Assembly: GCA_002328025.1 (NCBI GenBank)
Contig: DCVE01000014.1
Location: forward strand, 69,882 to 133,881
Length of the DNA stretch: 64,000 bases
Direction of reading: 5' to 3'
Source: Patescibacteria group bacterium UBA2196
GTDB lineage: Bacteria > Patescibacteriota > Patescibacteriia > UBA2196
The notes under the pieces are model-generated. The model made no database searches. It saw only the letters and a program-made list of their open reading frames with translations, and was not told where the DNA came from. The translations under genes were made by a program, and so were the position numbers. Shown here piece after piece: positions 10,495-33,036 of the stretch. Each line of letters begins with the position of its first letter. Position 1 is the stretch's first letter.

Positions 10495-12993
10495 ATGCTA
10501 AAAGAAGGACCATACAACCCACAAGACCATGAAGAAAAAATTTACCAACTTTGGGAGCAAGGTGGTTTTTTTACACCAAGCATTGATCAAGATAAAAAAT
10601 CTTATAGTATTGTTTTGCCGCCACCTAACGTGACTGGTACTTTGCATATTGGACACGCCTTGATGTTGGCCATTGAAGATATTTTAATTCGTTATCACCG
10701 CATGCAAGGTCTTAGAACTTTGTGGTTACCAGGCACAGATCACGCGGCCATTGCCACCCAAAGCAAAGTGGAAAAAAAGATTTATAAAGAAGAGGGTAAG
10801 TCTCGTTATGATTTAGGTCGCGAAGATTTTTTAAAAAGAGTAGAAAAGTTTGCCCAGGAAAGTCATGATACAATTGTGCAACAAACTAAAAGAATGGGCG
10901 CGTCTTTGGATTGGAGCCGAGAGGCTTATACTTTGGATGAAGCGCGCAACAGAGCGGTGAATATGGCTTTTAAAACCATGCATGATGATGGATTAATTTA
11001 TCAGGGCGACAGAGTAATTAATTGGGATCCTAAAGGACAGACTACAATTTCGGATGATGAAGTTGTGCATGTAGAAAGAGAAGCTGCGCTTTACACTTTT
11101 AAATATAGCTCAGATTTTCCTTTTGCTATTGCCACCACTCGTCCAGAAACAAAATTAGGTGATACAGCAGTGGCAGTGCACCCCAATGATGAAAGGTATA
11201 AAAAATTTATTGGCCAAGAATATGATTTAGAATTTTGCAAAGAAAAATTGCATATAAAAATTATTGCTGATGAATCTGTTGATCCAGAATTTGGTACAGG
11301 AGCTCTTGGGGTTACACCAGCTCATAGTCATATTGATTGGGAAATTGCCCAAAGACATAATTTATCTTTAAAACAAATAATTGATGAGAAGACACGGATA
11401 ATTTCTGTTAATGAAAATCTGCAGGGCAAAAAAGTTGAAGAAGCCAGATCCATTATTGTTGAGTGGTTAAAAGAAAATAATCTTTTAATAAAAGAAGAAC
11501 CAATAAAACAAAATGTGGCCACCGCTGAAAGAACAGGAGCTTTAGTTGAACCATTGCCCAAAAAGCAATGGTTTGTGGCCGTGAATAAAGAATTTGTGAT
11601 GAAAGAATCTAAATTAAAAAATATAAAAACCGGTGAAAAGGTGACTTTAAAAAAGTTAATGCGTTCGGTGGTGGAATCTAGTGAAATAAAAATAATGCCC
11701 GAGCAGTTTGAAAAAATATATTTTCACTGGATTGATAATTTGCGTGACTGGTGTATATCAAGGCAAATTTGGTATGGACACCGGGTACCGGTTTACTATA
11801 AAGATCAAGAAATTTGTGTTGGTGCAGAAGCGCCGGTGGGCGACGGTTGGGAACAAGACCCTGACACTTTGGATACTTGGTTTTCTTCTGGCCTATGGAC
11901 TTTTTCCACTTTGGGCTGGCCGATTAATGAAGTGCGTCATTTTCACGAATCATTGGTTGATTTAATTATTAAAGGTGAAAAAGTAAAAACATATCGCTTT
12001 GATGATGAAAGTTACTGTGTTGGTCAGGTTTGGCAATTAGAAAATTCTCAAACACAAGAAAAGTTTGGCTATGCCAAAATCACTAAAGTCAGCCAAGCTA
12101 GATTTGGAGATATTGGATATGGCGCTGAAGGACATGAAAAATACGCTTCCCAAGAAGATATGTATGAAACTTTTAAAAGATACTACCCTGAGAAAGAAAT
12201 TACGGCCGATTCACTCACCTGGATTTATGAATTTGAGTATCAACAAAAGTCTGATTTAGAAACTTTTCACCCCACTGATGTTTTGGAAACCGGTTATGAT
12301 ATTTTATTTTTCTGGGTGGCCAGGATGATTTTGATGACAACGTATTTATTGGGTGACATTCCTTTTAAAACAGTTTATTTGCATGGCTTAATTCGCGATG
12401 CGGAAAGACAAAAAATGAGTAAATCCAAAGACAATGCCGTGGACCCGCTTAGTGTAATTGATGAGCAGGGCGCGGATGCTTTGCGTATGGCCATGGTTTT
12501 TGGCACTGGTCAAGGCAATGATGTGGTTATGACACCAGATAAAATTGTGGCGCAGAAAAAATTTGCCAATAAAATTTGGAATGCCAGCAAGTTTATTTTA
12601 AACAATTTAGGCCAAGAATTTAAACCCGCAGTGGTGAACATTGATCTGTTTAAAAATAGTGATGATAAAGACATTTTAGAAAAATTAGCAGCCACCGTTA
12701 AACAAACTGCCATCAATCTTGATAATTTTATGTTTCATGAGGCAGCTCAGGATATTTATCAATTTTTCTGGCATGATTTGTGTGATGTTTATTTAGAGTC
12801 GGTCAAATCCAGATTGTATGACGAAGAAGGGGAGAGCCAAGAAAATGCGCGCCAAGTTTTATACCACGTTTTGTTAAACAGTTTAAAACTTTTGCATCCA
12901 TTTATGCCGTTTATAACAGAAGTGGTTTATCAAGAATTACCTTATAAAAATAAACAAAGCTTGATTATTGAAGATTGGCCAGTGAATGTATAA
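10495..12993 (+). CDS. valS: valyl-tRNA synthetase carrying an inserted ASCH-like domain
   Basis: PPPNVTGTLHIGHAL (ValRS-type HIGH) and KMSKSKDN. A ~110-aa insertion lies between the conserved ...WFSSGLWTFSTLGWP and FHPTDVLETGYDILFFWVARM blocks. Confidence 0.9.
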   Translation: MLKEGPYNPQDHEEKIYQLWEQGGFFTPSIDQDKKSYSIVLPPPNVTGTLHIGHALMLAIEDILIRYHRMQGLRTLWLPGTDHAAIATQSKVEKKIYKEEGKSRYDLGREDFLKRVEKFAQESHDTIVQQTKRMGASLDWSREAYTLDEARNRAVNMAFKTMHDDGLIYQGDRVINWDPKGQTTISDDEVVHVEREAALYTFKYSSDFPFAIATTRPETKLGDTAVAVHPNDERYKKFIGQEYDLEFCKEKLHIKIIADESVDPEFGTGALGVTPAHSHIDWEIAQRHNLSLKQIIDEKTRIISVNENLQGKKVEEARSIIVEWLKENNLLIKEEPIKQNVATAERTGALVEPLPKKQWFVAVNKEFVMKESKLKNIKTGEKVTLKKLMRSVVESSEIKIMPEQFEKIYFHWIDNLRDWCISRQIWYGHRVPVYYKDQEICVGAEAPVGDGWEQDPDTLDTWFSSGLWTFSTLGWPINEVRHFHESLVDLIIKGEKVKTYRFDDESYCVGQVWQLENSQTQEKFGYAKITKVSQARFGDIGYGAEGHEKYASQEDMYETFKRYYPEKEITADSLTWIYEFEYQQKSDLETFHPTDVLETGYDILFFWVARMILMTTYLLGDIPFKTVYLHGLIRDAERQKMSKSKDNAVDPLSVIDEQGADALRMAMVFGTGQGNDVVMTPDKIVAQKKFANKIWNASKFILNNLGQEFKPAVVNIDLFKNSDDKDILEKLAATVKQTAINLDNFMFHEAAQDIYQFFWHDLCDVYLESVKSRLYDEEGESQENARQVLYHVLLNSLKLLHPFMPFITEVVYQELPYKNKQSLIIEDWPVNV

Positions 12994-13054: not shown

Positions 13055-13597
13055 TCAGCCCTTGCGTCCTGCAATGTTAAGGACGAGGTTTCTGCGCCGC
13101 GATCCCGGTGGCAGAAAAAACTCCAGTACCATCATGCAGAACTCCCAGATCCAGTATTTCTTCTGGTACTGGTCTGGGCTGGAAAAGGTAAAAGTGTACC
13201 AGCCGTCTTTGTTTTCGGCTTTCCACTTTCTCTTTAGACGCAAGACCAAATGTGGCTTTAACGCCACAACGGTTAATTTTTTGAAGCCTCTTTCGCGGCA
13301 TATGCGGTTGGCCTCCGCAATTTCGTCCGCCGAGTCACGGGCGGCCATGTCCGCCCCCACTATAATTTTCACGTCGTAGTCCAGATTCATCATCCGCAGG
13401 GCCTCTTTTTTGTATATTTGGGCCTCAGACCGTGTGTCAGACGGGACAGTCCGCCCCACGGTCATGATAAGCGGACAGTAGCATTTCGTCCGGGCTTTTT
13501 TAATGCCCCAACGAAGCACATCAAGGCCTCTTGCTGGGACAATTGAGTCCTTTGGGCAATAGGTGTGCACCATAACCGCCTCGGTTACTCTCTTCAT
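13055..13597 (-). CDS. DUF218 (YdcF/SanA/ElyC-like) domain protein encoded on a GC-rich island
   Basis: The blocks PLIMTVGRT..., SEAQIYKKEALRMMNLDYDVKII and GADMAARDSADEIAEANRI...LTVVALKPHLVLRLK follow the order of E. coli YdcF motifs. Canonical SD GGAGGAtcacATG. Local GC is much higher than the flanks. Confidence 0.45.
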   Translation of the reverse strand: MKRVTEAVMVHTYCPKDSIVPARGLDVLRWGIKKARTKCYCPLIMTVGRTVPSDTRSEAQIYKKEALRMMNLDYDVKIIVGADMAARDSADEIAEANRICRERGFKKLTVVALKPHLVLRLKRKWKAENKDGWYTFTFSSPDQYQKKYWIWEFCMMVLEFFLPPGSRRRNLVLNIAGRKG

Positions 13598-13881: not shown

Positions 13882-14556
13882 ATGTTATCGCGGCAGGATG
13901 AATTATTAAAAAGTATTGTTGAAGAATATCTAAAAACCGCTCAACCTGTGGGGTCCAAATTAATTGTGGATAAGTATTTAACTGATTTTTCTTCAGCCAC
14001 AGTTAGAAATGATATGGTTGAATTGGAGGAATTGGGCTTAATCTGTCAGCCGCACACTTCAGCCGGCCGTATCCCAACCGCCGAGGGTTATAAAAAATTT
14101 GTGGAAAATTATGTTGATTTTAACCAAGCTTTAAACATCAAAGAACAAGAAAAAATATTTACTTTGCTTTCTGCTAAAGAAGGTGAAGATAAAATTAAAC
14201 TCTTGGCCAAAATTTTGGCGGAAAAATCGGGTTTAGCGGTTTTTGTGGGTTTTAGCGCCAGTGATGTTTATTACACGGGTTTATCAAACATTTTTTCACA
14301 AAGCGAATTTAAAGATTTAAATTTGATTTATCACATTTCAACAGTGGTGGATCACCTTGATGAAGTTCTGCAGAAAATTTATAATAATAAGGGCGCGCCA
14401 GTTGAAATAAAAATTGGACATGAAAATCCCTTTGCGCGCGATTGCTCAACGGTTTTTGCTAAAATAAAAAATATTTTATTAGGTATTGTGGGACCCATGC
14501 GTATGGATTATCAAAAAAATGTCGAACTAATTAATTTTACTAGAAATATAATATAA
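13882..14556 (+). CDS. hrcA: heat-inducible transcription repressor HrcA (short form)
   Basis: N-terminal wHTH LLKSIVEEYLKTAQPVGSKLIVDKY...SSATVRNDMVELEELGL. CIRCE upstream and grpE-dnaK-dnaJ downstream. Confidence 0.85.
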   Translation: MLSRQDELLKSIVEEYLKTAQPVGSKLIVDKYLTDFSSATVRNDMVELEELGLICQPHTSAGRIPTAEGYKKFVENYVDFNQALNIKEQEKIFTLLSAKEGEDKIKLLAKILAEKSGLAVFVGFSASDVYYTGLSNIFSQSEFKDLNLIYHISTVVDHLDEVLQKIYNNKGAPVEIKIGHENPFARDCSTVFAKIKNILLGIVGPMRMDYQKNVELINFTRNII

Positions 14557-14562
14557 TTTTTT

Positions 14563-15054
14563 ATGACGGATAATAAAAAAGAGGAACAAGAAAAAAAAAA
14601 TAAGATTGTTACAGATTTGAAATTACAGGCTGAAGAAAATTTAAATGGTTGGAAAAGAGCTCGCGCTGATTATGACAATCTAAAAAAAGAAACCCAAAAA
14701 GAAAGAGAAGAATTTGTTAAATTTGCCAATTTAAATTTAGTCATTGGCCTAATTCCGGTTTATGATAATTTAAAACTTTCTTTTCAGCACTTGCCAGAAG
14801 AATTAACTGACAATAGTTGGGTCAAAGGCATTTTGCACATTAAAAATCAATTTAAAGAAGTTTTAAATTTTAATGCTGTGGAAGAAATTATACCAAAAAT
14901 AGGTGACGATTTTAACCCAGAGTTGCACGAAGCGGTTGATAAGCAGGTAACTGAAATAACCGAAAAAAATAGCAATAAAATTAAAGAAATTTTAAGCGAT
15001 GGCTACAAGTTAAATGGTCGTGTTTTTAAACCAGCCCGAGTGATAGTAGAATAA
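14563..15054 (+). CDS. grpE: nucleotide exchange factor GrpE
   Basis: Coiled-coil N-terminus then the GrpE core (...RARADYDNLKK...GYKLNGRVFKPARV). Confidence 0.85.
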   Translation: MTDNKKEEQEKKNKIVTDLKLQAEENLNGWKRARADYDNLKKETQKEREEFVKFANLNLVIGLIPVYDNLKLSFQHLPEELTDNSWVKGILHIKNQFKEVLNFNAVEEIIPKIGDDFNPELHEAVDKQVTEITEKNSNKIKEILSDGYKLNGRVFKPARVIVE

Positions 15055-15155
15055 TTTTTAATTTTCAATTTCTAATTCTCAAACAATGTCTTAATTATTC
15101 AATTTTTAATGATTGAAACATTAAAAATTAAGTTATTGGAAATTATTTAGAAATT
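15055..15155. repeat. intergenic repeat, copy B (see copy A at 5002-5100)
   Basis: Same element as copy A in the same plus-strand orientation. Here it lies between grpE and hsp20. Confidence 0.55.
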
Positions 15156-15202
15156 AAAAATTAGAGATTTATAATTAATTAATCTCTCCGAGTGGTCACA
15201 TT

Positions 15203-15655
15203 ATGACATCGGTGAGGTTCAAAGAATATATATATATGTCACTAGTTAAATGGACACCAATTTTACCAGATTCATTTGAAGATATGAATCATTGGTTTGA
15301 CTGGCCAACCTCAAAAATGTCTCTTAATTACGCACCAGCTATTGATATTTGGCAAGATCAAGACAATATCTATGCTGAATGTCCTTTGGTTGGAATTAAT
15401 CCCGCAGATGTATCAATCTCAATTGAAAACGATGTTTTAACCATCGAAGGTCAAAGTGAGAAAAAAAGTGAAGTTGATGAAAGAAATTATTATCGCAAAG
15501 AAGTACGCTATGGTTCTTTTCACCGTGTGGTGTCTTTGCCGGCAGCGGTTAATAGTGAACAGGCCAAGGCCGAGTACGAAAATGGTGTGTTAAAAGTTTC
15601 TATTCCTAAGGAAGCCAAAGCTAAACCCAAGACAGTCAAGGTAGAAGTCAAATGA
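15203..15655 (+). CDS. Hsp20/alpha-crystallin family small heat-shock protein
   Basis: Alpha-crystallin domain PAIDIWQDQDNIY...LTIEGQ...YYRKEVRYGSFHRVVSLP...ENGVLKVSIPK. The true start may be the internal Met (MSLVKW, about 15236). Confidence 0.85.
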   Translation: MTSVRFKEYIYMSLVKWTPILPDSFEDMNHWFDWPTSKMSLNYAPAIDIWQDQDNIYAECPLVGINPADVSISIENDVLTIEGQSEKKSEVDERNYYRKEVRYGSFHRVVSLPAAVNSEQAKAEYENGVLKVSIPKEAKAKPKTVKVEVK

Positions 15656-15727
15656 TAAATTGAAAATAAAATATTTTAATTTTACCATCCCGCAGTGTGA
15701 TTATTTAGTGTGGCTGTGGGATGGTAA

Positions 15728-16075
15728 GTGCCTTTTATGTCTAAAAAAAATATTACTGAATATGCATTAAAGTTAATAAAAAACTGTCCAGCCTGTGGAG
15801 TAGATTATAAAATAGAAAACATTAACACAGTGGAAGAAAATGATGAAGATTTTTTGGTTTGTTTTTCCTGCTCGGCCTGTCAAAGCTCGCTTTTATCCCG
15901 AGTGATGACCATGCCTTTTGGGTTGGTTGGCTCAGCCATTTTGACCGATTTAAAAGCTGAAGAGATTAATAAGTTTAAAGACAGTGAGCCAGTTACAGCT
16001 AATGATGTTTTAAGCATATATGAAAGACTTGAGTTTGGACGCAAAAAAAATAATAATTACAAAATAAACAGTTAA
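15728..16075 (+). CDS. small zinc-ribbon protein of unknown function inside the heat-shock operon
   Basis: CPAC...CFSCSAC four-Cys ribbon. No family recognised. The start may be the MSKKN Met about 9 nt downstream. Confidence 0.35.
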   Translation: MPFMSKKNITEYALKLIKNCPACGVDYKIENINTVEENDEDFLVCFSCSACQSSLLSRVMTMPFGLVGSAILTDLKAEEINKFKDSEPVTANDVLSIYERLEFGRKKNNNYKINS

Positions 16076-16105
16076 TCATATAAATAATTAATTAAAAATA
16101 ACTTT

Positions 16106-18010
16106 ATGTCAAAAATTCTCGGTATTGATCTTGGCACCACTAATTCCTGTATGGCCATTATGGAAGGTGGCGCGCCAAAAATTTTAGAAAATAAAGAAGG
16201 CAATCGCACCACGCCTTCCATTGTGGCCATTAATAAAGCCAATGAAAGACTGGTTGGTTTGTTAGCTAAACGTCAAGCAGTGACTAATCCAACCAACACA
16301 TTATTTTCCATTAAACGTTTAATTGGCCGACGTTTTGAGGATGAAGAAGTGCAAAGAGATTTAAAAAACATGCCTTTTAAAATCAAACAAGCTGGGGCGG
16401 GTGTTAAAATTGAGATGAGCGGCAAAGACTATACTCCACAAGAGATCTCAGCTATGGTTTTAGGAAAACTAAAAGCTGATGCGGAAGAAAAGTTAGGTGA
16501 AAAAATTATTGAAGCAGTGATTACTGTGCCAGCCTATTTTGATGATGCCCAAAGACAAGCCACCAAAGAAGCTGGCGAAATTGCTGGTTTGACTGTCAAG
16601 AGAATTATTAATGAGCCGACAGCTGCGGCATTGGCTTATGGCTTTGATAAAAAGAAAGGTCAGCAAATCGCTGTCTATGATTTGGGTGGTGGAACTTTTG
16701 ATATTTCCATATTAGATATTTCCGCTGATACTGTAGAAGTTAAATCAACCAATGGCGACACGCATTTGGGTGGTGACGATTTTGACCAAAGAATTATGAC
16801 TTGGATTTTGGATGAATTTAAAAAACAAGAGGGCATTGATATTTCTAAAGATCCGATGGCTTTACAAAGAGTTAAAGAAGCAGCAGAAAAAGCCAAGATT
16901 GAGCTGTCCACTGCTGGTGATACTGAAATTAACCAACCATTTATTACTTCTGGTGCCGAAGGGCCAAAACATTTATTATTAAAAATGTCTCGCGCTAAAC
17001 TTGAAGAATTAGTCGGCGATTTGGTGCAGAGTACTTTAGAGCCAACAAAAAAAGCCTTGGCTGACGCAGGTTTGAAAGTTTCAGATATTGAAGAAGTGGT
17101 CATGGTTGGTGGAATGACTAGAATGCCTTTGGTCCAGCAAACAGTAGAAAAGTTTTTTGGCAAAAAACCCAACATGACTGTTAATCCTGATGAAGTGGTG
17201 GCAGCTGGCGCCGCTGTACAAGCCGGTGTTTTACAAGGCGATGTTAAGGACGTTTTACTTTTAGACGTGACGCCCTTAACTTTAGGTATTGAAACTTTGG
17301 GTGGCGTGGCTACACCCTTGATTGATAGAAATACCACCATTCCAACTTCAAAATCGCAAGTCTTTTCCACTGCTGCTGATAATCAACCTAGTGTTGAAAT
17401 TCATATTTTACAAGGTGAGCGTCCTATGGCCACGGATAATAAAACTTTGGGTAGATTTATTTTAGATGGTATTCCACCAGCTCCACGTGGCATTCCACAG
17501 GTGGAAGTTAGTTTTGATATTGATGCTAATGGTATTTTAAATGTCAAAGCTAAAGATAAAGCGACTGGTAAAGAACAAAAAATTACCATCACTGCTTCCA
17601 CTGGACTTTCAAAAGATGAAGTGGAAAGAATGAAAAAGGAAGCTGAGTCACACGCCGAAGAAGACAAAAAAAAGAAAGAACAGATTGAAATTAAAAATAT
17701 GGCGGAAACTCTTTACTACACCACAGAAAAAACACTAAAAGACAATGCAGATAAAATTGATACCAACATCAAAAAAGATGTGGAAGAAAAATTAGAAGTT
17801 TTAAAAAAAATCAAAGATACTGATGATGTAGAAGCAATTAAAAAAGCCACCGAAGAATTATCTACCTCTGCGCAAAAAATTGGGGAAGCCATGTATAAAG
17901 CTTCGCAAGCCGGCTCAAACCCAGAGGGTCAGCCAGCGGGTGATGAAGAACCCGCCTCCTCAGCTGATAAAAAGCCAGAAGAAGCTCAGTATGAAGAAGT
18001 TAAAAAATAA
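16106..18010 (+). CDS. dnaK: molecular chaperone DnaK (Hsp70)
   Basis: [19 protein letters not shown], the substrate-binding domain and a C-terminal ...EEVKK-type tail. Confidence 0.95.
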
Positions 18011-21244: not shown

Positions 21245-23815
21245 ATGTCTCCCTATGTTCCAAACTCACCATTAGAATTAGCTGGTCAGAGTTTTTTTAA
21301 TAGTCCATCTTTTTATGTTGGGCTTTTTTTAATGGCTTTTGTTTTTTTAGCTGTGGTTTTTCTTTTTATTTATCGCGCCCATGCAAGACGTAATTATAAA
21401 TTACCAGCCAAGTACCATCAGGTGGTTTTGTTGGTTTCAATGCCCAAGGAAGCGTTGTCTGATAAAGAGGGTGGCAATGTAAATTCTATTGAAAAAATCC
21501 GTGAACAAATTTCTTGGGCAGAAAATTTATGGGCACAGGTGGGTGGTTTAAAAGCAGAAAAGGGATTCAAAGTTTGGTTGTATGGCCGCCATGACCACAT
21601 ATCTTTAGAAATTGTAGCGCATCAAAAAGTAATTTATTTTTATATCGCAGTACCAAAATATTTGCAAGCCTATCTTGAACAGCAACTACAAGCGCAATAC
21701 TCATATGCTCAAGTTGAAGAAGTTCCTGATTACAATATTTTTTCGCCCGCTGCAACCGTTGTCTGTGCCAGTGTTAAACTTGAAAAACAAAACATGCTTC
21801 AAATTAAAACCTATAAGGAATTTGACGCTGATCCATTAAATTCATTAACTAACATTTTAAGTAAACTTGGGTCTGATGACAGTGCTGCCATTCAGTTTGT
21901 GGTGCGTTCGGCCCATAAAAAATGGCGTACAGTCGGACTAAAAATTGCCGCAGCCATGCAGCAGGGTAAATCTTTAAGAGATGCTTTAAAAGCTAATAAT
22001 AAAGATTTATTAACAATTTTAAGTAAGGGATATAATGCGGTGTTTAGTCAAGAAGACGATAAAAAAAAAGATCAGGATAAAAAAGACGGTTTAACCCCAG
22101 GCAGTTATCGTCTTTCGGCCAAAGAAGAAGAGTTAGTCAAAAAAATTCAAGAAAAAAGCTCCAAAGCTGGTTTAGATGTTAACATCCGTGTGGTTATTAC
22201 TGCGCAAAATTTACCACTAGCTGATGCCTACTTAGCCAATGTTTTAAATTCTTTTGCCCAATATAATGTTTATGAATTTGGCAACGCTTTTAAGGTAGCT
22301 AAAAATAGCGGTGATGATAAAAATATTTCCGCCTTTATTCATCGAATTTTTAATGATAAAAATGGTTTTGTTTTAAATACTGAAGAATTGGCCTCGGTTT
22401 TTCATTTTCCATTACCTTCTTGTGAAACACCCAATATTCACTGGTTGGGTGCACGTAAGGCTGCGGCACCGATTAATATTCCGACCGAAGGTATTGTAAT
22501 TGGTAAAAACATTTTTCGTGGTGGTGAAACACTCATCCGCATGAAACAGGAAGATCGTATGCGTCATACATATATCATTGGTATGACCGGTGCTGGCAAA
22601 TCAGTTTTAATGGAAGAAATGGCCAAACAAGACATTGCGGCTGGTCGGGGAGTTTGTTTTATTGATCCGCACGGTACAGCCATCGATCGCATCATGCCTT
22701 GTATTCCCAAAGAAAGGCTTGAGGATGTTATATACCTTGATCCCTCTGATACAGAACGGCCAATCGGTTTAAATATGTTGGAAGCCAAAACTCAGCAGGA
22801 AATGGATTTTGCCACTTCAGAAATGATTAGTATTTTTTACAAACTTTTACCCGATCCGGCCATGGCTGGACCAATGTTTGAACATTATATGCGCAATGCC
22901 TTGTTGGCTTTAATGGCCGATCAAGATGATCCCGGAACTTTGGTGGAATTGGGACGCATTTTTACTGATGAAGATTATCGTAAGAAAAAGTTACATTATG
23001 TGCGGGATATTTTGGTGAAAGATTTTTGGGAAAGAGAATATACAGCTTCTCAGCGCGGCTCTATGGCTTCAGATATGCTTTCGTATGTCATTTCAAAAAC
23101 GGGTCGTTTTGTTGAAAATGAAATGATGCGTAACATTATTGGTCAATCTATTTCCGGTTTTAACTTTCGCCAAGTCATGGATGAGGGTAAAATTTTGCTA
23201 GTCAATTTATCCAAGGGTAAGATTGGTGAAACCAACAGTAGTCTTTTGGGTCTAATCATTGTTTCAAAATTACAGATGGCCGCCATGGCACGAGCTGATT
23301 TACCGGAAGAAAAAAGAAAAGATTTTATGTTATATATTGATGAGTTTCAAAATTATACCACTGATTCCATGGCCATTATTTTGGCTGAAGCCAGAAAATA
23401 CCGTTTGGCGCTGATCATGGCCCACCAGTATATTACGCAATTAGTCAAAGGTCAAGACACTTCCATTCGAGACGCTGTTTTTGGTAATGTTGGCAGCATG
23501 ATTATTTTCCGTATTGGCGTAGAAGATGCGGAAGTGATTGCCAAACAATTTGCGCCAGTCTTTAATCAACAAGATTTAATTAATATTGAAAAACGCAATG
23601 CCTATGTTAGACTCTTGATTGATGGTACGGTCAGTCGTCCGTTTAACATGGAGTCCATGCCTTGGACATTTGGTGATGAAAAAATTGTAACTGCCATACG
23701 CGAACTTTCTCGTCTAAAATATGGTCGTCCCAAAAATGGGGTTGAAGCGGAAATCATCCGACGGTCTAAAATAGGTGCTTTAAGTAAGGCTGCACTACAC
23801 AATAATGCCGAATAA
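21245..23815 (+). CDS. membrane-anchored FtsK/HerA-superfamily ATPase, TrwB/TraD/VirD4-like (T4CP-like), fused N-module + ATPase
   Basis: N-terminal TM segment (FYVGLFLMAFVFLAVVFLFIY) and a ~380-aa N-module ending ...EELASVFHFP. Walker A IIGMTGAGKS followed by GRGVCFIDPHG...DVIYLDPSDTERPIGLNMLE, which parallels the TrwB block RGDRMVIVDPNGD...DIILNPYDQR...FNEI. Walker B LYIDEFQNY. Arginine-finger/Q block AEARKYRLALIMAHQYITQL. Confidence 0.6.
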   Translation: MSPYVPNSPLELAGQSFFNSPSFYVGLFLMAFVFLAVVFLFIYRAHARRNYKLPAKYHQVVLLVSMPKEALSDKEGGNVNSIEKIREQISWAENLWAQVGGLKAEKGFKVWLYGRHDHISLEIVAHQKVIYFYIAVPKYLQAYLEQQLQAQYSYAQVEEVPDYNIFSPAATVVCASVKLEKQNMLQIKTYKEFDADPLNSLTNILSKLGSDDSAAIQFVVRSAHKKWRTVGLKIAAAMQQGKSLRDALKANNKDLLTILSKGYNAVFSQEDDKKKDQDKKDGLTPGSYRLSAKEEELVKKIQEKSSKAGLDVNIRVVITAQNLPLADAYLANVLNSFAQYNVYEFGNAFKVAKNSGDDKNISAFIHRIFNDKNGFVLNTEELASVFHFPLPSCETPNIHWLGARKAAAPINIPTEGIVIGKNIFRGGETLIRMKQEDRMRHTYIIGMTGAGKSVLMEEMAKQDIAAGRGVCFIDPHGTAIDRIMPCIPKERLEDVIYLDPSDTERPIGLNMLEAKTQQEMDFATSEMISIFYKLLPDPAMAGPMFEHYMRNALLALMADQDDPGTLVELGRIFTDEDYRKKKLHYVRDILVKDFWEREYTASQRGSMASDMLSYVISKTGRFVENEMMRNIIGQSISGFNFRQVMDEGKILLVNLSKGKIGETNSSLLGLIIVSKLQMAAMARADLPEEKRKDFMLYIDEFQNYTTDSMAIILAEARKYRLALIMAHQYITQLVKGQDTSIRDAVFGNVGSMIIFRIGVEDAEVIAKQFAPVFNQQDLINIEKRNAYVRLLIDGTVSRPFNMESMPWTFGDEKIVTAIRELSRLKYGRPKNGVEAEIIRRSKIGALSKAALHNNAE

Positions 23816-25615: not shown

Positions 25616-27283
25616 ATGAGTTTATCAACCAAATCACAGAACCGCTATAAGTTGGCTGGTATTATTGTTTTAGCCATTTTTTGCGCGCTGATTGTTTATC
25701 CAAAAGTTCCCACCAGTACTCCATTGGAAAGTTTTTGGAATAAGTTTAAATTTCGTTTAGGCCTTGACTTGCAGGGCGGAGCGCATTTGGTCTATCAGGC
25801 TGACACCAGCCAGGTTGATGGGCGCGATCAAGCTTCAGCCGTGGCTGGTGTACGCGATGTTATTGAAAGACGTGTGAATGCTTTTGGGGTTTCTGAGCCA
25901 GTGGTGCAAACAAACATGGTTGGTAATGATTACCGTGTAATTGTAGAATTGGCTGGTGTTAAAGATGTTGATCAAGCTATTCAGATGATTGGTGAAACAC
26001 CTCTTTTAGAATTTAAAACTCAAAATCCAAACTATTCCGACGAGTTGACGAATACTCAAAAAACAGAATTAGAAAAATATAATAGTGCACAAAAAAACAA
26101 AGCCGAAGAAGTTTTAAAAGAAGCTCTGGTAAAAAATGTTAACTTTGAAAATTTAGCTAAACAATATTCTGAAGATCCAGGCTCAAAAGATCAGGGCGGT
26201 GATTTGGGTTGGGCCAAAAGAGGCATGTTTGTTAAGGAATTTGAAGATGAAATTTTTGATATTTTACAACCTGGTCAAACCTCACAAATTTTAGTTAAAA
26301 CCAGTTTTGGTTATCATGTTATTAAGAAAATTGCAGTGCGCGGCGAGGGTGCGGATTTAGAAGTTCATGCGCAACATATTTTATTTAAAACACGAAATGA
26401 AGCCGATATTGTTTCTGTTGCTAATCAGTGGCTTAATACTCAACTATCAGGCAAGAACTTAACGCGCGCTCAGGTGCAGTTTGATACGCAATCCGGCGAA
26501 CCTCAGGTAGGCCTAGAATTTAATGATGAGGGTAAAACATTGTTTGCCGAAATTACCGAACAAAATGTTGGCAAACCTGTGGCTATTTTTTTGGATGGCC
26601 AGCCCATTTCTGTGCCCAGAGTTGACGAGCCCATTAAAGAAGGCAAAGCGGTTATTAGTGGCCGTTTTAATATTAAAGAAGCCAAACAATTGGTGGAACG
26701 TTTAAATGCCGGTGCTTTACCAGTCCCAATCACTTTGATTTCGCAAGAAACAGTTGGTGCCTCGCTGGGGCAGGAATCTTTGGATAAAAGCTTATTTGCT
26801 GGTGTTGTTGGTTTAATTGCCGTGGCCTTGTTTATGCTATTTTTTTATCGTCTGCCTGGCTTAATTTCAGTGTTTGCCTTAATTATTTATGCTTTAATTA
26901 ACTTAACGCTTTATAAAACCTTATCTCTAACCCTAACTTTGGCTGGTATCGCTGGCTTTATTCTGTCAGTTGGAATGGCAGTTGATGCTAACGTGTTAAT
27001 TTTTGAACGTCTAAAAGAAGAGTTAAAAGCCGGTCGCGAAGTTGCCTCAGCGGTTGATGAGGGTTTTAAAAGAGCTTGGACTTCCATTCGTGATTCAAAT
27101 ATTTCATCGCTCATAACTTGTGTTATTTTGTATTGGATAGGTACTTCAATGGTTAAGGGTTTTGCTTTAACCTTGGCATTGGGTGTTTTAATTTCTTTAT
27201 TTTCTGCCATTACTGTCACCAGAACCTTTTTAAAACTTTTCTTAATTAAATCTTTTAAAGATAAAAAATGGCTTTTCGGCTAA
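25616..27283 (+). CDS. secD: protein translocase subunit SecD with an inserted parvulin-type PPIase domain
   Basis: TM1, then LGLDLQGGAHLVYQ, ...IGETPLLEFK, and the C-terminal 6-TM SecD core. A PpiC-like segment sits between the P1 blocks (NFENLAKQYSEDPGSKDQGGDLGWAKRGMFVKEFEDEIFDILQPGQTSQILVKTSFGYHVIKK). Confidence 0.85.
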   Translation: MSLSTKSQNRYKLAGIIVLAIFCALIVYPKVPTSTPLESFWNKFKFRLGLDLQGGAHLVYQADTSQVDGRDQASAVAGVRDVIERRVNAFGVSEPVVQTNMVGNDYRVIVELAGVKDVDQAIQMIGETPLLEFKTQNPNYSDELTNTQKTELEKYNSAQKNKAEEVLKEALVKNVNFENLAKQYSEDPGSKDQGGDLGWAKRGMFVKEFEDEIFDILQPGQTSQILVKTSFGYHVIKKIAVRGEGADLEVHAQHILFKTRNEADIVSVANQWLNTQLSGKNLTRAQVQFDTQSGEPQVGLEFNDEGKTLFAEITEQNVGKPVAIFLDGQPISVPRVDEPIKEGKAVISGRFNIKEAKQLVERLNAGALPVPITLISQETVGASLGQESLDKSLFAGVVGLIAVALFMLFFYRLPGLISVFALIIYALINLTLYKTLSLTLTLAGIAGFILSVGMAVDANVLIFERLKEELKAGREVASAVDEGFKRAWTSIRDSNISSLITCVILYWIGTSMVKGFALTLALGVLISLFSAITVTRTFLKLFLIKSFKDKKWLFG

Positions 27284-31080: not shown

Positions 31081-33036
31081 ATGATTGTCTACGACCACGA
31101 TCATGATCGTGAAATAACATATTTCGCTGCCACAAATTTCCGCAATCAAATGCTAAAATTTGGCATAAAAACCGAAGATCGTCGGAGGCATGTTTATATT
31201 CTTGGTAAAACCGGCAGTGGTAAAACGACTCTGGAAGCCAATATGGCTCTGCAAGATATTGAGCGCGGTCATGGCATGTGTTTGGTGGATCCACATGGTG
31301 ATGTTTTAAATTCTGTTTTGGATTACATTCCATCTCATCGTGTTAATGATGTAATCTATTTTAATCCATCCGATACTGCTTACCCCATTGCTTTTAATAT
31401 TTTAGAAAACATCAATCCTGAACATAAGCATTTGGTGGCTTCTGGTTTAATGAGCGTCTTTAAAAAGATTTGGGCCAATCTGTGGTCGGCGCGTATGGAA
31501 TATATTTTAAATAATTGTATTTTGGCTCTTTTAGATTCACCCGGCAATACATTATTAGGCATTATGCGCATACTTACAGATAAAGATTTCCGTCGTAAAA
31601 TTGTGGATAACATTAAAGATCCAGTGGTTAAATCTTTTTGGGTCAATGAATATGCTAATTATCAGGATCGATTTCGTCAGGAAGCTATTGCGCCAATTCA
31701 AAATAAAGTTGGACAATTTTTATCTTCGGCTGTCATTCGTAACATTGTTGGCCAAACCAAATCTACCATTGAACCCAGAAAAATAATTGATGAGGGAAAA
31801 ATTTTACTGCTTGACTTAGCTAAGGGTAAGATTGGTGAAGACAATTCTTCTTTGTTAGGAGCCATGATGATTACTAAGATTTGGTTGGCTGCCATGTCAC
31901 GTGTGGATGTGCCGGAAAGTGAACGGCTTGATTTTTATTTATACGTGGATGAATTTCAGAATTTTGCCACTGAATCTTTTGCTGACATTTTGTCTGAAGC
32001 CAGAAAATATCGTTTAAATTTAACTGTGGCGCATCAATATATTGCTCAACTTGTTTCGCCAGATTCCACCCGTGTTAAAGATGCGGTTTTTGGCAACGTG
32101 GGTACTATAATTTGTTTTCGTGTTGGCGGCGGCGACGCTAAAGAGTTAATTAAAGAATTTGAACCGACTTTTTTGGAAGAAGATCTAGTTAATATTGGTA
32201 AACACGAAATATTTTTAAAACTAATGATTGATGGTATGGCCTCGGCGCCTTTTAGCGCCAAAACTTTACCGCCACTTTCCACTGGTCGTGAAAATAAAAA
32301 TCGTGAAAAAATTGTTCGTATTTCGCGTGAACGTTATTCTAACACCAAAGAAGAAGTTGAAGAAAAAATTATGCGTTGGTCGGGTGTAGAAGAAATGTTT
32401 AAAGAAACTGCCAAAGCCGAATATGTGGATGAAGAAAAGATGGTCTATAAAGAAGCTGAAATTAAAACCAATAATTCAAGTAATATAAAAAAAATAGCTG
32501 AAACAAAATCTGCGGCAGTACGGGAAGTTCAGACAGATGACAAAAAATATTTGGATGCTTTTTGTGACAATTGCGGTCAACCAACTCGCATTAACTTTTT
32601 ACCAGATTTAAGTAAAGCAATTTTTTGCCGCAATTGCTTGAAAGAATTTAAAAAAGGCAGTATTGATCCACATAAATTAAAATCTAAGAACAGTCATCTT
32701 TTGGACACCGTTAAACAACAACAGATGGGTGCAGCGACAACCTTAATACCCCCAGAAGTGACTATTTTATCCACTCAAAACACAAAAGTCTTGGAAAAAA
32801 GTTTGGTATCTGCTAAAGTTATAACATCCATATCACCTGATCAGGTTTTAACAGCTAAAACCAAAAAGGCAAAAATAAACTTTTTGGACAGTCTAAAATA
32901 TAAGCCGGAAGAAAAAAGTCAACCAACCGTTGACTTAGATGCTTTAAAAGATATAAATCAAGTGGTGCCTTTTAATAAATTTGGAACAAAAAAGGAACCT
33001 CAAAAGATTAATCCCGGGCAGGTGATAAGGTTTTAA
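31081..33036 (+). CDS. TrwB/TraD/VirD4-like (T4CP-like) ATPase, stand-alone, with a C-terminal zinc-ribbon extension
   Basis: Walker A ILGKTGSGKT, then GHGMCLVDPHGD...DVIYFNPSDTAYPIAFNILE. Walker B LYVDEFQNF. SEARKYRLNLTVAHQYIAQL. GNVGTIICFRVGG. The extra ~250-aa tail contains CDNCGQPTRINF...IFCRNCL. Confidence 0.6.
   Translation: MIVYDHDHDREITYFAATNFRNQMLKFGIKTEDRRRHVYILGKTGSGKTTLEANMALQDIERGHGMCLVDPHGDVLNSVLDYIPSHRVNDVIYFNPSDTAYPIAFNILENINPEHKHLVASGLMSVFKKIWANLWSARMEYILNNCILALLDSPGNTLLGIMRILTDKDFRRKIVDNIKDPVVKSFWVNEYANYQDRFRQEAIAPIQNKVGQFLSSAVIRNIVGQTKSTIEPRKIIDEGKILLLDLAKGKIGEDNSSLLGAMMITKIWLAAMSRVDVPESERLDFYLYVDEFQNFATESFADILSEARKYRLNLTVAHQYIAQLVSPDSTRVKDAVFGNVGTIICFRVGGGDAKELIKEFEPTFLEEDLVNIGKHEIFLKLMIDGMASAPFSAKTLPPLSTGRENKNREKIVRISRERYSNTKEEVEEKIMRWSGVEEMFKETAKAEYVDEEKMVYKEAEIKTNNSSNIKKIAETKSAAVREVQTDDKKYLDAFCDNCGQPTRINFLPDLSKAIFCRNCLKEFKKGSIDPHKLKSKNSHLLDTVKQQQMGAATTLIPPEVTILSTQNTKVLEKSLVSAKVITSISPDQVLTAKTKKAKINFLDSLKYKPEEKSQPTVDLDALKDINQVVPFNKFGTKKEPQKINPGQVIRF

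Follow-up and report, generated by a model that had tools for sequence, protein, structure and literature searches.

An ASCH domain of the YqfB type lies inside a patescibacterial valyl-tRNA synthetase, and related domains recur in class Ia synthetases

We analyzed a 64,000-nucleotide stretch of DNA from Patescibacteria group bacterium UBA2196 (contig DCVE01000014.1, positions 69,882 to 133,881, forward strand), hereafter called the window, in which the gene valS encodes a valyl-tRNA synthetase (ValRS) of 832 amino acids (aa). An in-frame insert of 110 residues within the catalytic domain of this enzyme is a complete ASCH domain of the YqfB (Thr) type. Four tests support this identity: the Pfam search, the profile search against PDB sequences, the predicted fold and the conservation of the catalytic motif. 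ASCH domains were also found inside other ValRS and inside leucyl-tRNA synthetases (LeuRS), and this recurrence in related synthetases suggests that tRNA charging and RNA de-modification are connected in a way not yet described. No description of an ASCH domain inside a synthetase was found in literature searches. Domain and enzyme are each known; the architecture that joins them is new, recurrent and apparently undescribed.

An in-frame insert in valS

The valS open reading frame (ORF) matched the NCBIfam equivalogs NF004349 (889.7 bits, cut-off 704) and TIGR00422 (853.2 bits, cut-off 612.1). A Pfam scan of the protein detected tRNA-synt_1 (E 1.7e-123), the editing-domain model tRNA-synt_1_2 (26.4, cut-off 25) and Anticodon_1 at aa 724-830 (E 1.2e-33). 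Together with the HIGH and KMSKS signatures (Table 1), the hidden Markov model matches, the CP1 editing domain and the anticodon-binding domain characterize the predicted product as a valine--tRNA ligase of class Ia. The AlphaFold 2 (AF2) model of the full-length protein had a predicted local distance difference test (pLDDT) score of 86.2, and its top PDB match was the ValRS-tRNA structure 1GAX, with a template modeling (TM) score of 0.74. The nearest ValRS carry the labels Patescibacteria, Parcubacteria, Paceibacterota and Yanofskybacteria. The GC content of the window was 31-39%.

A preliminary description of the window had reported about 110 extra residues between TLGWP and FHPT, at 11921-12267. 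This position was essentially exact and was refined to 11923-12252: the insert comprises aa 477-586 and lies in frame between TLGWP476 and the ancestral linker DLETFHPTD. In a phmmer comparison with Thermus thermophilus ValRS (1GAX; E 2e-155), query residues 6-477 aligned with chain residues 6-471 and query residues 584-829 with chain residues 472-706. The spacing between GWP and HPT in 123 related ValRS was 8-10 residues in 106, 16-20 residues in 12 and at least 100 residues in 5. The closest relative (P0002, gene L004; core identity 86%) has no insert, and the DNA alignment of the two genes revealed a clean in-frame indel, with aa 477-586 in place of four codons (DKTE). The linker 3' of the indel was kept, reading DLETFHPTD in the window and DLKTFHPTN in P0002.

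We considered several trivial origins of the extra residues. The identical 832-aa protein was present on 6 contigs, and the three loci shown came from three datasets (ERZ27315072, 281 kb; SRR943332; SRR943329), which rules out misassembly or a chimera. The GC content was 0.339 in the insert and 0.375 in the remainder of valS, and the corresponding values at third codon positions were 0.237 and 0.317; recent foreign DNA was ruled out by the lack of a sharp compositional break. A lineage-typical ValRS expansion segment was likewise ruled out, since only 5 of the 123 relatives carry the insert. The preliminary description had also noted a short FH..FH duplication flanking the insert, which turned out to be coincidental. 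The first ASCH strand has an invariant Phe, here F483 (126 of 139 free homologues), and H592-P593-T594 is invariant or nearly so in ValRS, insert-free enzymes included; other carriers read DFD...YHPT or FFD...YHPT. Because the repeat is absent from other carriers and HPT is present at empty sites, a mobile insertion with target-site duplication was ruled out.

In the full-length model, the insert sits in the second Rossmann half, preceded by a helix (aa 460-473) and followed by a strand (aa 595-599). The insertion point is modeled as a surface loop of this half, about 50 residues before KMSKS and within the catalytic domain. The earlier placement of the insert next to the tRNA-binding region was therefore not borne out, as the anticodon-binding domain begins at aa 724. 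The ASCH secondary structure was retained in the full-length model, with pLDDT of 76-91 in 10-residue blocks. The junction blocks were of low confidence (58 at aa 471-480, 67-69 at aa 581-600), and both junctions between ASCH and ValRS are probably flexible.

The host enzyme is compact in other respects. Using the names CP2 and CP3 from the structure literature on isoleucyl-tRNA synthetase (IleRS) and ValRS, CP3 of the window enzyme is minimal (aa 431-455, 11786-11860; 18 residues) and has no zinc knuckle; a CxxC...CxxC knuckle is still held by some relatives (P0007, P0023, P0065). The Pfam scan gave no match to PF10458 (Val_tRNA-synt_C) for a C-terminal coiled-coil arm, and the protein stops directly after the anticodon-binding domain. 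Since the arm is also missing from insert-free relatives (about 720-750 aa), its absence is a lineage trait unrelated to the insert.

The insert is an ASCH domain of the Thr type

Pfam PF04266 matched the excised insert at 44.6 bits (E 2.4e-11, cut-off 21.2) over profile positions 2-100 of 103, and within the whole protein it scored 40.1 bits at aa 482-581. A profile of the insert and its homologues, compared with PDB sequences, had the E. coli N4-acetylcytidine amidohydrolase YqfB (9KYF) as its best match (E 3.9e-8). Modeled by AF2 together with four residues of the linker (aa 477-590), the insert reached a pLDDT of 93.3, and the best Foldseek match of this model in the PDB was again YqfB 9KYF (TM 0.73/0.82; root-mean-square deviation 2.6 Å). 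All of the top 17 Foldseek matches (E <= 0.001) were ASCH-family or closely related PUA-like structures, including YqfB, EF3133/DUF984, 3S9X, ZmASCH, PH0355 and PF0455. The predicted fold is that of an autonomous beta-barrel resembling YqfB. These results, with the Thr-type motif described below, uphold the ASCH/YqfB-type identity given in the preliminary description. The block-for-block likeness to YqfB was also reproduced: BLASTP aligned the two at 27% identity over 78 aa (E 0.001), pairing KYASQEDM with KHAEQENM.

The NCBIfam YqfB equivalog NF003443 scored the insert at 18.3 bits (E 0.002), below its cut-off of 93. By these sequence comparisons, the insert is not a YqfB orthologue; it is YqfB-like by motif and predicted fold, and is assigned to a distinct subfamily with the consensus MKxLKF..GEKTxTWRLFDDK..GHExY..YY. 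It is acidic, with a net charge of -5 and an isoelectric point (pI) of 5.2, as YqfB is. By analogy, this acidity argues against a simple RNA-binding add-on, as YqfB shows no nucleic-acid binding. Added tRNA recognition, modification sensing and editing had been raised as possible roles in the preliminary description.

Catalytic residues and selection

The ASCH family is defined by the octapeptide GxKxx[E/T/S]xR (bioRxiv 10.64898/2026.02.27.708502), which is present in the insert in its Thr (YqfB) form. K496, T499 and R501 lined up with the YqfB residues in both the profile and the BLASTP alignments (Table 1). In YqfB, the variants K21A, T24A and R26A were inactive and E74A was 100-1000 fold slower, and His70 and Tyr89 made a smaller contribution (PMC6972931). 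In the insert, K496 is proposed to act as the base and T499 as the nucleophile, and R501 would form the oxyanion hole. A Glu occupied the position of YqfB E74 in either alignment (E548 in the HMMER profile, E554 in BLASTP), and YqfB His70 fell on H547 or Y550, depending on the alignment.

We then counted these residues in the 139 free (non-synthetase) homologues. The catalytic K, T and R were present in 134, 132 and 134 of them, the His and Glu of the GHE motif in 118 and 112, and Y564 in 127. K, T and R were kept in 15 of the 16 synthetase-embedded domains of types 1 and 2, the same rate as in the free enzymes, P0105 being the exception.

To describe selection on the insert, we refer to the window protein as P0001 and to its insertion point as site B. 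Between the carriers P0009 and P0028, the nonsynonymous difference (pN) was 0.20 in the insert and 0.11 in the core, and the synonymous difference (pS) was saturated at 0.76-0.80 (0.80 in the insert). Between P0001 and P0009, pN was 0.37 in the insert and 0.30 in the core. The amino-acid identity of the insert was 64% for P0009 and P0028 and 48% for P0001 and P0009, with the frame and the catalytic residues intact. Judged from these substitutions, the insert changes 1.3-2 times faster than the core, yet is clearly under purifying selection. In a neighbour-joining tree, the three intact site-B inserts clustered weakly (bootstrap 53), and in the core tree their host ValRS were interspersed with insert-free relatives. 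That the inserts group while their hosts interleave with insert-free ValRS implies one of two histories, an old insertion followed by several precise losses or a spread by recombination.

ASCH domains recur in class Ia synthetases

Class Ia synthetases made up 10 of the best 150 representatives matched by the insert. Site B is occupied in 5 ValRS clusters (P0001, P0009, P0028, P0105 and P0065). At a further site, designated A, 10 ValRS clusters hold an ASCH domain in CP3, between WCISR..PVWY and DTWFSS. An ASCH domain was present in all 10 ValRS with inserts of at least 100 aa at sites A or B. Both sites precede the N-terminal ends of neighbouring parallel strands, and the ASCH domain may come to lie in about the same spot. 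Two LeuRS clusters (P0263 and P0251) have their ASCH domain in CP1, the editing domain, where it interrupts the first hairpin at a point matching residue 239/243 of T. thermophilus LeuRS, just before TTRPDT. The P0263 cluster holds 246 sequences from many contigs. The P0263 enzyme has no leucine-specific domain, its alignment skipping from chain residue 579 to 637.

Some carriers hold more than one inserted domain. In P0065, a 1049-aa ValRS assembled from a public read set, two enzyme domains have been inserted: an ASCH domain of a different subtype (aa 689-796) at exactly the insertion point of the window enzyme (GWP|...|DLTIYHPT), and His_Phos_1 (aa 469-642) inside the CP3 zinc knuckle. P0144, a 1062-aa ValRS, has a tandem insert in CP3, in which a Glu-type ASCH-like domain (GSKTVELR; Pfam 21.4 bits) is followed by a Thr-type ASCH domain. 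The site-A carrier P0006 has a Glu-type ASCH domain that barely exceeded the cut-off, at 21.4 bits.

The site-A (type-2) subtype formed a clade with a bootstrap of 99, which it shared with free proteins and with NUDIX, His_Phos_1, S4 and FtsY-like fusions. The domain of the P0263 LeuRS grouped with other free proteins (bootstrap 83). Since the differing subtypes fall in separate clades, the trees indicate that at least three ASCH subtypes have entered two ValRS loops and the LeuRS editing domain, and that three or four independent insertions are needed at minimum. All internal insertions of this ASCH family that we found were in class Ia synthetases (15 ValRS and 2 LeuRS clusters). Two of the fusion partners are as follows. 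P0132 (620 aa) is an FtsY/SRP54-type GTPase with ASCH (aa 170-280) before its N and G domains, and P0167 consists of an S4 RNA-binding domain and ASCH.

The preliminary description had called the insertion unusual, and the searches agree. It was present at site B in few relatives, as given above, and a scan of 185,579 species-representative genomes with three site-B sequences returned 1 locus only, the contig of P0028. In a metagenome scan, the sole match was an unrelated free ASCH gene in another genomic context, with no ValRS nearby. Some carriers stand in public databases simply as valine--tRNA ligase, for example OGY59268.1 of Candidatus Colwellbacteria.

Free relatives of the insert

An exhaustive phmmer search of 1.84 billion representatives with the insert gave 198 matches, the best of which were free proteins of about 110 aa with 33-42% identity. 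The alignment with free homologues spanned the whole insert; F483, K496 and R501 did not vary in it, and T499 hardly did. A profile of the synthetase-embedded ASCH domains, used in a word-indexed search, returned short free ASCH proteins only.

Free ASCH genes of the site-A type (P0309, P0301) were observed at loci L008-L015, 8-95 bp downstream of GNAT acetyltransferase genes. At the P0309 loci, the ASCH genes stand between grpE and dnaK, and at the P0301 loci they are downstream of grpE. As judged from gene order, such pairs of GNAT and free ASCH genes may be pairs of an acetyl writer and eraser.

Possible function and alternatives

We tentatively propose, with confidence a little short of even, that the insert is an active N4-acylcytidine amidohydrolase for which the synthetase serves as a tRNA-binding scaffold. 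In vitro, all 19 ASCH proteins tested removed N4-acetylcytidine (ac4C) from tRNA; YqfB-type enzymes showed no nucleic-acid binding, and archaeal members bind tRNA through an appended helix-turn-helix (HTH) domain (bioRxiv 10.64898/2026.02.27.708502). The embedded domain would hydrolyse N4-acylcytidine (ac4C type) by the chemistry of K496, T499 and R501, as in YqfB. Presumably without RNA affinity of its own, like YqfB-type ASCH domains, it would depend on ValRS for tRNA binding, and it could then deacylate N4-acylated cytidines in tRNA that ValRS holds or has released. Aminoacylation by ValRS would itself be unaffected, because close relatives function without the insert. The scaffold proposal is favoured because YqfB-type enzymes do not bind nucleic acids, because an HTH domain supplies this binding in archaea and because the window domain is acidic. 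The confinement of internal ASCH insertions to class Ia synthetases, as judged from the sequences collected, supports a coupling to tRNA. A broader version, in which class Ia synthetases repeatedly gained an N4-acylcytidine eraser acting on bound tRNA, so that charging became coupled to the acylation state of cytidine, would make these the first synthetases known with an RNA-demodifying activity; we regard this version as unlikely.

Several observations weigh against the scaffold proposal. In E. coli without yqfB, the ac4C of tRNA was unchanged (bioRxiv 10.64898/2026.02.27.708502), and no literature on ac4C writers in Patescibacteria was found. Rossmann topology would put the insertion point at a strand's N-terminal end and on the side opposite the active-site cleft; in the structure literature on IleRS and ValRS, nothing was found on whether the loop is turned toward the tRNA. 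The low YqfB equivalog score (18 bits against 93) counts in the same direction. The carrier P0105 has Ile in place of the catalytic Lys and has lost about 18 residues. ValRS with core identities of 86%, 78% and 71% have no insert, so that it is dispensable for charging. Free relatives are fused end to end with NUDIX (P0125, P0130), His_Phos_1 (P0123), HAD (P0160) and Peptidase_S51 (P0148), and free genes of the window subtype overlap or adjoin genes for NUDIX and nucleoside 2-deoxyribosyltransferase-like proteins (L016, 2200-3330; L018, 2385-4199). Judged from these sequences, the small-molecule nucleotide-enzyme context points to nucleoside or nucleotide substrates, in salvage or sanitising. 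These fusions and neighbours also favour the main rival, in which the insert is a salvage enzyme carried as a passenger. It would act on free N4-acylated nucleosides or nucleotides scavenged by a bacterium unable to make its own; the loops would tolerate the insertion and the fusion would guarantee expression, with no coupling to tRNA. Free cytosines and cytidines acylated at N4 are substrates for which YqfB has high specificity (kcat/Km up to 2.8e6 M-1 s-1), and a role in ac4C catabolism was proposed for it (PMC6972931). The combination of His_Phos_1 and ASCH inside the ValRS P0065 parallels the free fusion P0123, and the same genome has a rotamase domain inserted in a SecD homologue. However, the fusions to metabolic enzymes are serial, whereas internal insertions were confined to the 17 ValRS and LeuRS clusters. 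In addition, ValRS acquired no fewer than three ASCH subtypes, at two loops and with one tandem pair, and, besides one His_Phos_1, no other domain type occurred in inserts of at least 100 aa at these loops in the 123 ValRS. We consider a passenger role rather unlikely.

Three further explanations were weighed against the scaffold proposal. The domain could be a non-catalytic module, a PUA-like RNA- or protein-binding or structural appendage, for example one that offsets the missing coiled coil and CP3 zinc knuckle, with the hydrolase chemistry being irrelevant. ASCH belongs to the PUA-like RNA-binding superfold, YTH and PUA structures were among the weak Foldseek matches, and several site-A domains are basic (P0184, +9; P0023, +6). 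The ValRS lineage is without the coiled-coil tRNA-binding arm, the alignment stopping at 1GAX residue 706 of 862, and P0105 retains a catalytically dead, shortened ASCH domain. Such a module is nevertheless quite improbable, given the conservation of K, T and R in nearly all embedded type-1 and type-2 domains and the acidity of the window domain, shared with YqfB, for which nucleic-acid binding went undetected; nor is there a specific deficit to offset, as insert-free relatives have no coiled coil either. A hydrolase that serves synthetase chemistry rather than ac4C was also considered. Its Thr-Lys-Glu triad would clear mis-acylated or N-acylated species or acylated CCA-end cytidines, as auxiliary proofreading or repair. 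The hosts are exactly editing class Ia enzymes (ValRS and LeuRS), the LeuRS copy lies inside CP1 beside TTRPDT, and each of the three insertion sites falls within the catalytic/CP module, which deals with the acceptor end, and none in the anticodon-binding domain; YqfB also accepts structurally diverse N4-acyl groups (PMC6972931). This explanation is purely inferential, with no known substrate of this kind, and we hold it to be very improbable: the CP1 editing motifs are equally conserved in carriers and non-carriers, so that nothing needs replacing, and free homologues are numerous outside any synthetase context. The least probable explanation in our estimate is a neutral or decaying insertion, a functionless domain that arrived by chance in a loop tolerant of it and is being lost. 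Its patchy distribution, with clean absence from relatives of 86% core identity, and the degenerate copy in P0105 would fit such a fate. It is at odds with the intact frame and catalytic residues at 64% and 48% insert identity between carriers whose synonymous sites are saturated, with the high-confidence predicted fold and with the repeated independent acquisitions.

Synthetases are known to collect extra domains, and the erasing of ac4C from tRNA by ASCH proteins is a very recent finding. Action of the inserted domain on bound tRNA would give a natural case of a synthetase bringing an eraser to its substrate, and would make N4-acyl-cytidine turnover a question for ultra-small bacteria. Should the domain be no more than a salvage enzyme, it would still show that reduced genomes repeatedly retain accessory activities by inserting domains into essential enzymes.

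Features and neighbouring genes

The features of valS are listed in Table 1.

Table 1. Coordinates in the window of valS, its signatures and the inserted domain
Feature	Coordinates	Strand	Basis
valS, 832 aa + stop; ValRS with insert	10495..12993	+	ORF list
ValRS aa 1-476: first Rossmann half, CP1 editing, CP2, reduced CP3, DTWFSS strand, helix to TLGWP	10495..11922	+	Aligned to 1GAX 6-471; model secondary structure
HIGH signature, aa 51-54	10645..10656	+	Translation
Inserted ASCH domain, aa 477-586 (INEVRHFHES...YEFEYQQKS)	11923..12252	+	Pfam PF04266, AF2 model, Foldseek; edges from DNA alignment with L004
ASCH octapeptide G494-E-K496-V-K-T499-Y-R501 (GxKxxTxR)	11974..11997	+	Corresponds to YqfB K21, T24, R26
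G546-H-E548-K-Y-A-S-Q-E554-D-M, corresponding to YqfB H70...E74 region	12130..12162	+	HMMER profile and BLASTP alignments
Y563-Y564-P565, corresponding to YqfB Y89-P90	12181..12189	+	Profile alignment, conservation
ValRS aa 587-832: linker DLETFHPTD, ETGYD strand, KMSKS, SC fold, anticodon-binding domain	12253..12990	+	Aligned to 1GAX 472-706/862
KMSKS signature, aa 640-644	12412..12426	+	Translation

In the window, valS with its ASCH domain lies just upstream of hrcA-grpE-hsp20-dnaK (13882-18010). Between valS and hrcA is an ORF of 180 aa (13055-13597, minus strand) with no Pfam match, which was called as 172 aa in independent assemblies. No second ASCH gene was found within the 64-kb window, and the only RNA gene detected there was tRNA-Pro, with no tRNA-Val. 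A PPIC-type rotamase (aa 146-239) separates SecD_1st from the P1 head subdomain in a SecD homologue of 555 aa (25616-27283, plus strand), giving this genome a further housekeeping protein with one domain set inside another. Two large TrwB/VirD4-like coupling-protein ATPases of the type IV secretion type are encoded about 7 kb apart (21245-23815 and 31081-33036, plus strand).

Comparison with known systems

The inserted domain resembles E. coli YqfB (9KYF, 9KYH, 1TE7) in its predicted fold, its Thr-type octapeptide, its Lys, Thr and Arg residues, the Glu and Tyr that sequence alignment pairs with YqfB E74 and Y89, and its acidity. YqfB is a free protein of 103 aa, whereas the window domain is embedded in a synthetase, and the identity between them is 19-27%. 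The host enzyme and T. thermophilus ValRS (1GAX/1IVS) have an orthologous core with HIGH, KMSKS, the CP1 editing domain and the anticodon-binding domain in common. The T. thermophilus enzyme is uninterrupted at 471/472, where the window enzyme has 106 extra residues, and it has both the CP3 zinc knuckle and the C-terminal coiled coil that the window enzyme does not have.

With respect to the proposed function, a close parallel is the archaeal ASCH protein with a C-terminal AAAD_HTH domain (Afu3ASCH, Pku4ASCH; bioRxiv 10.64898/2026.02.27.708502), in which an ASCH domain without tRNA affinity of its own is likewise joined to a tRNA-binding module. The archaeal ASCH removes ac4C from tRNA, as the synthetase version is proposed to do. 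In archaea, the ASCH domain is joined terminally to a small HTH domain, whereas in the window enzyme it is internal to the catalytic domain of an essential synthetase. By analogy, the ASCH-ValRS would be a natural counterpart of these archaeal tRNA-binding fusions. An autonomous enzyme domain within a class Ia synthetase has parallels in the CP1 editing domain and, by the name of its library entry only, in NCBIfam NF040702 (isoleucine--tRNA ligase, N-acetyltransferase domain-containing), which was among the NCBIfam matches. These differ from the ASCH inserts in fold, insertion site and chemistry, and CP1 is an ancient domain found universally, whereas ASCH inserts occur sporadically and in particular lineages.

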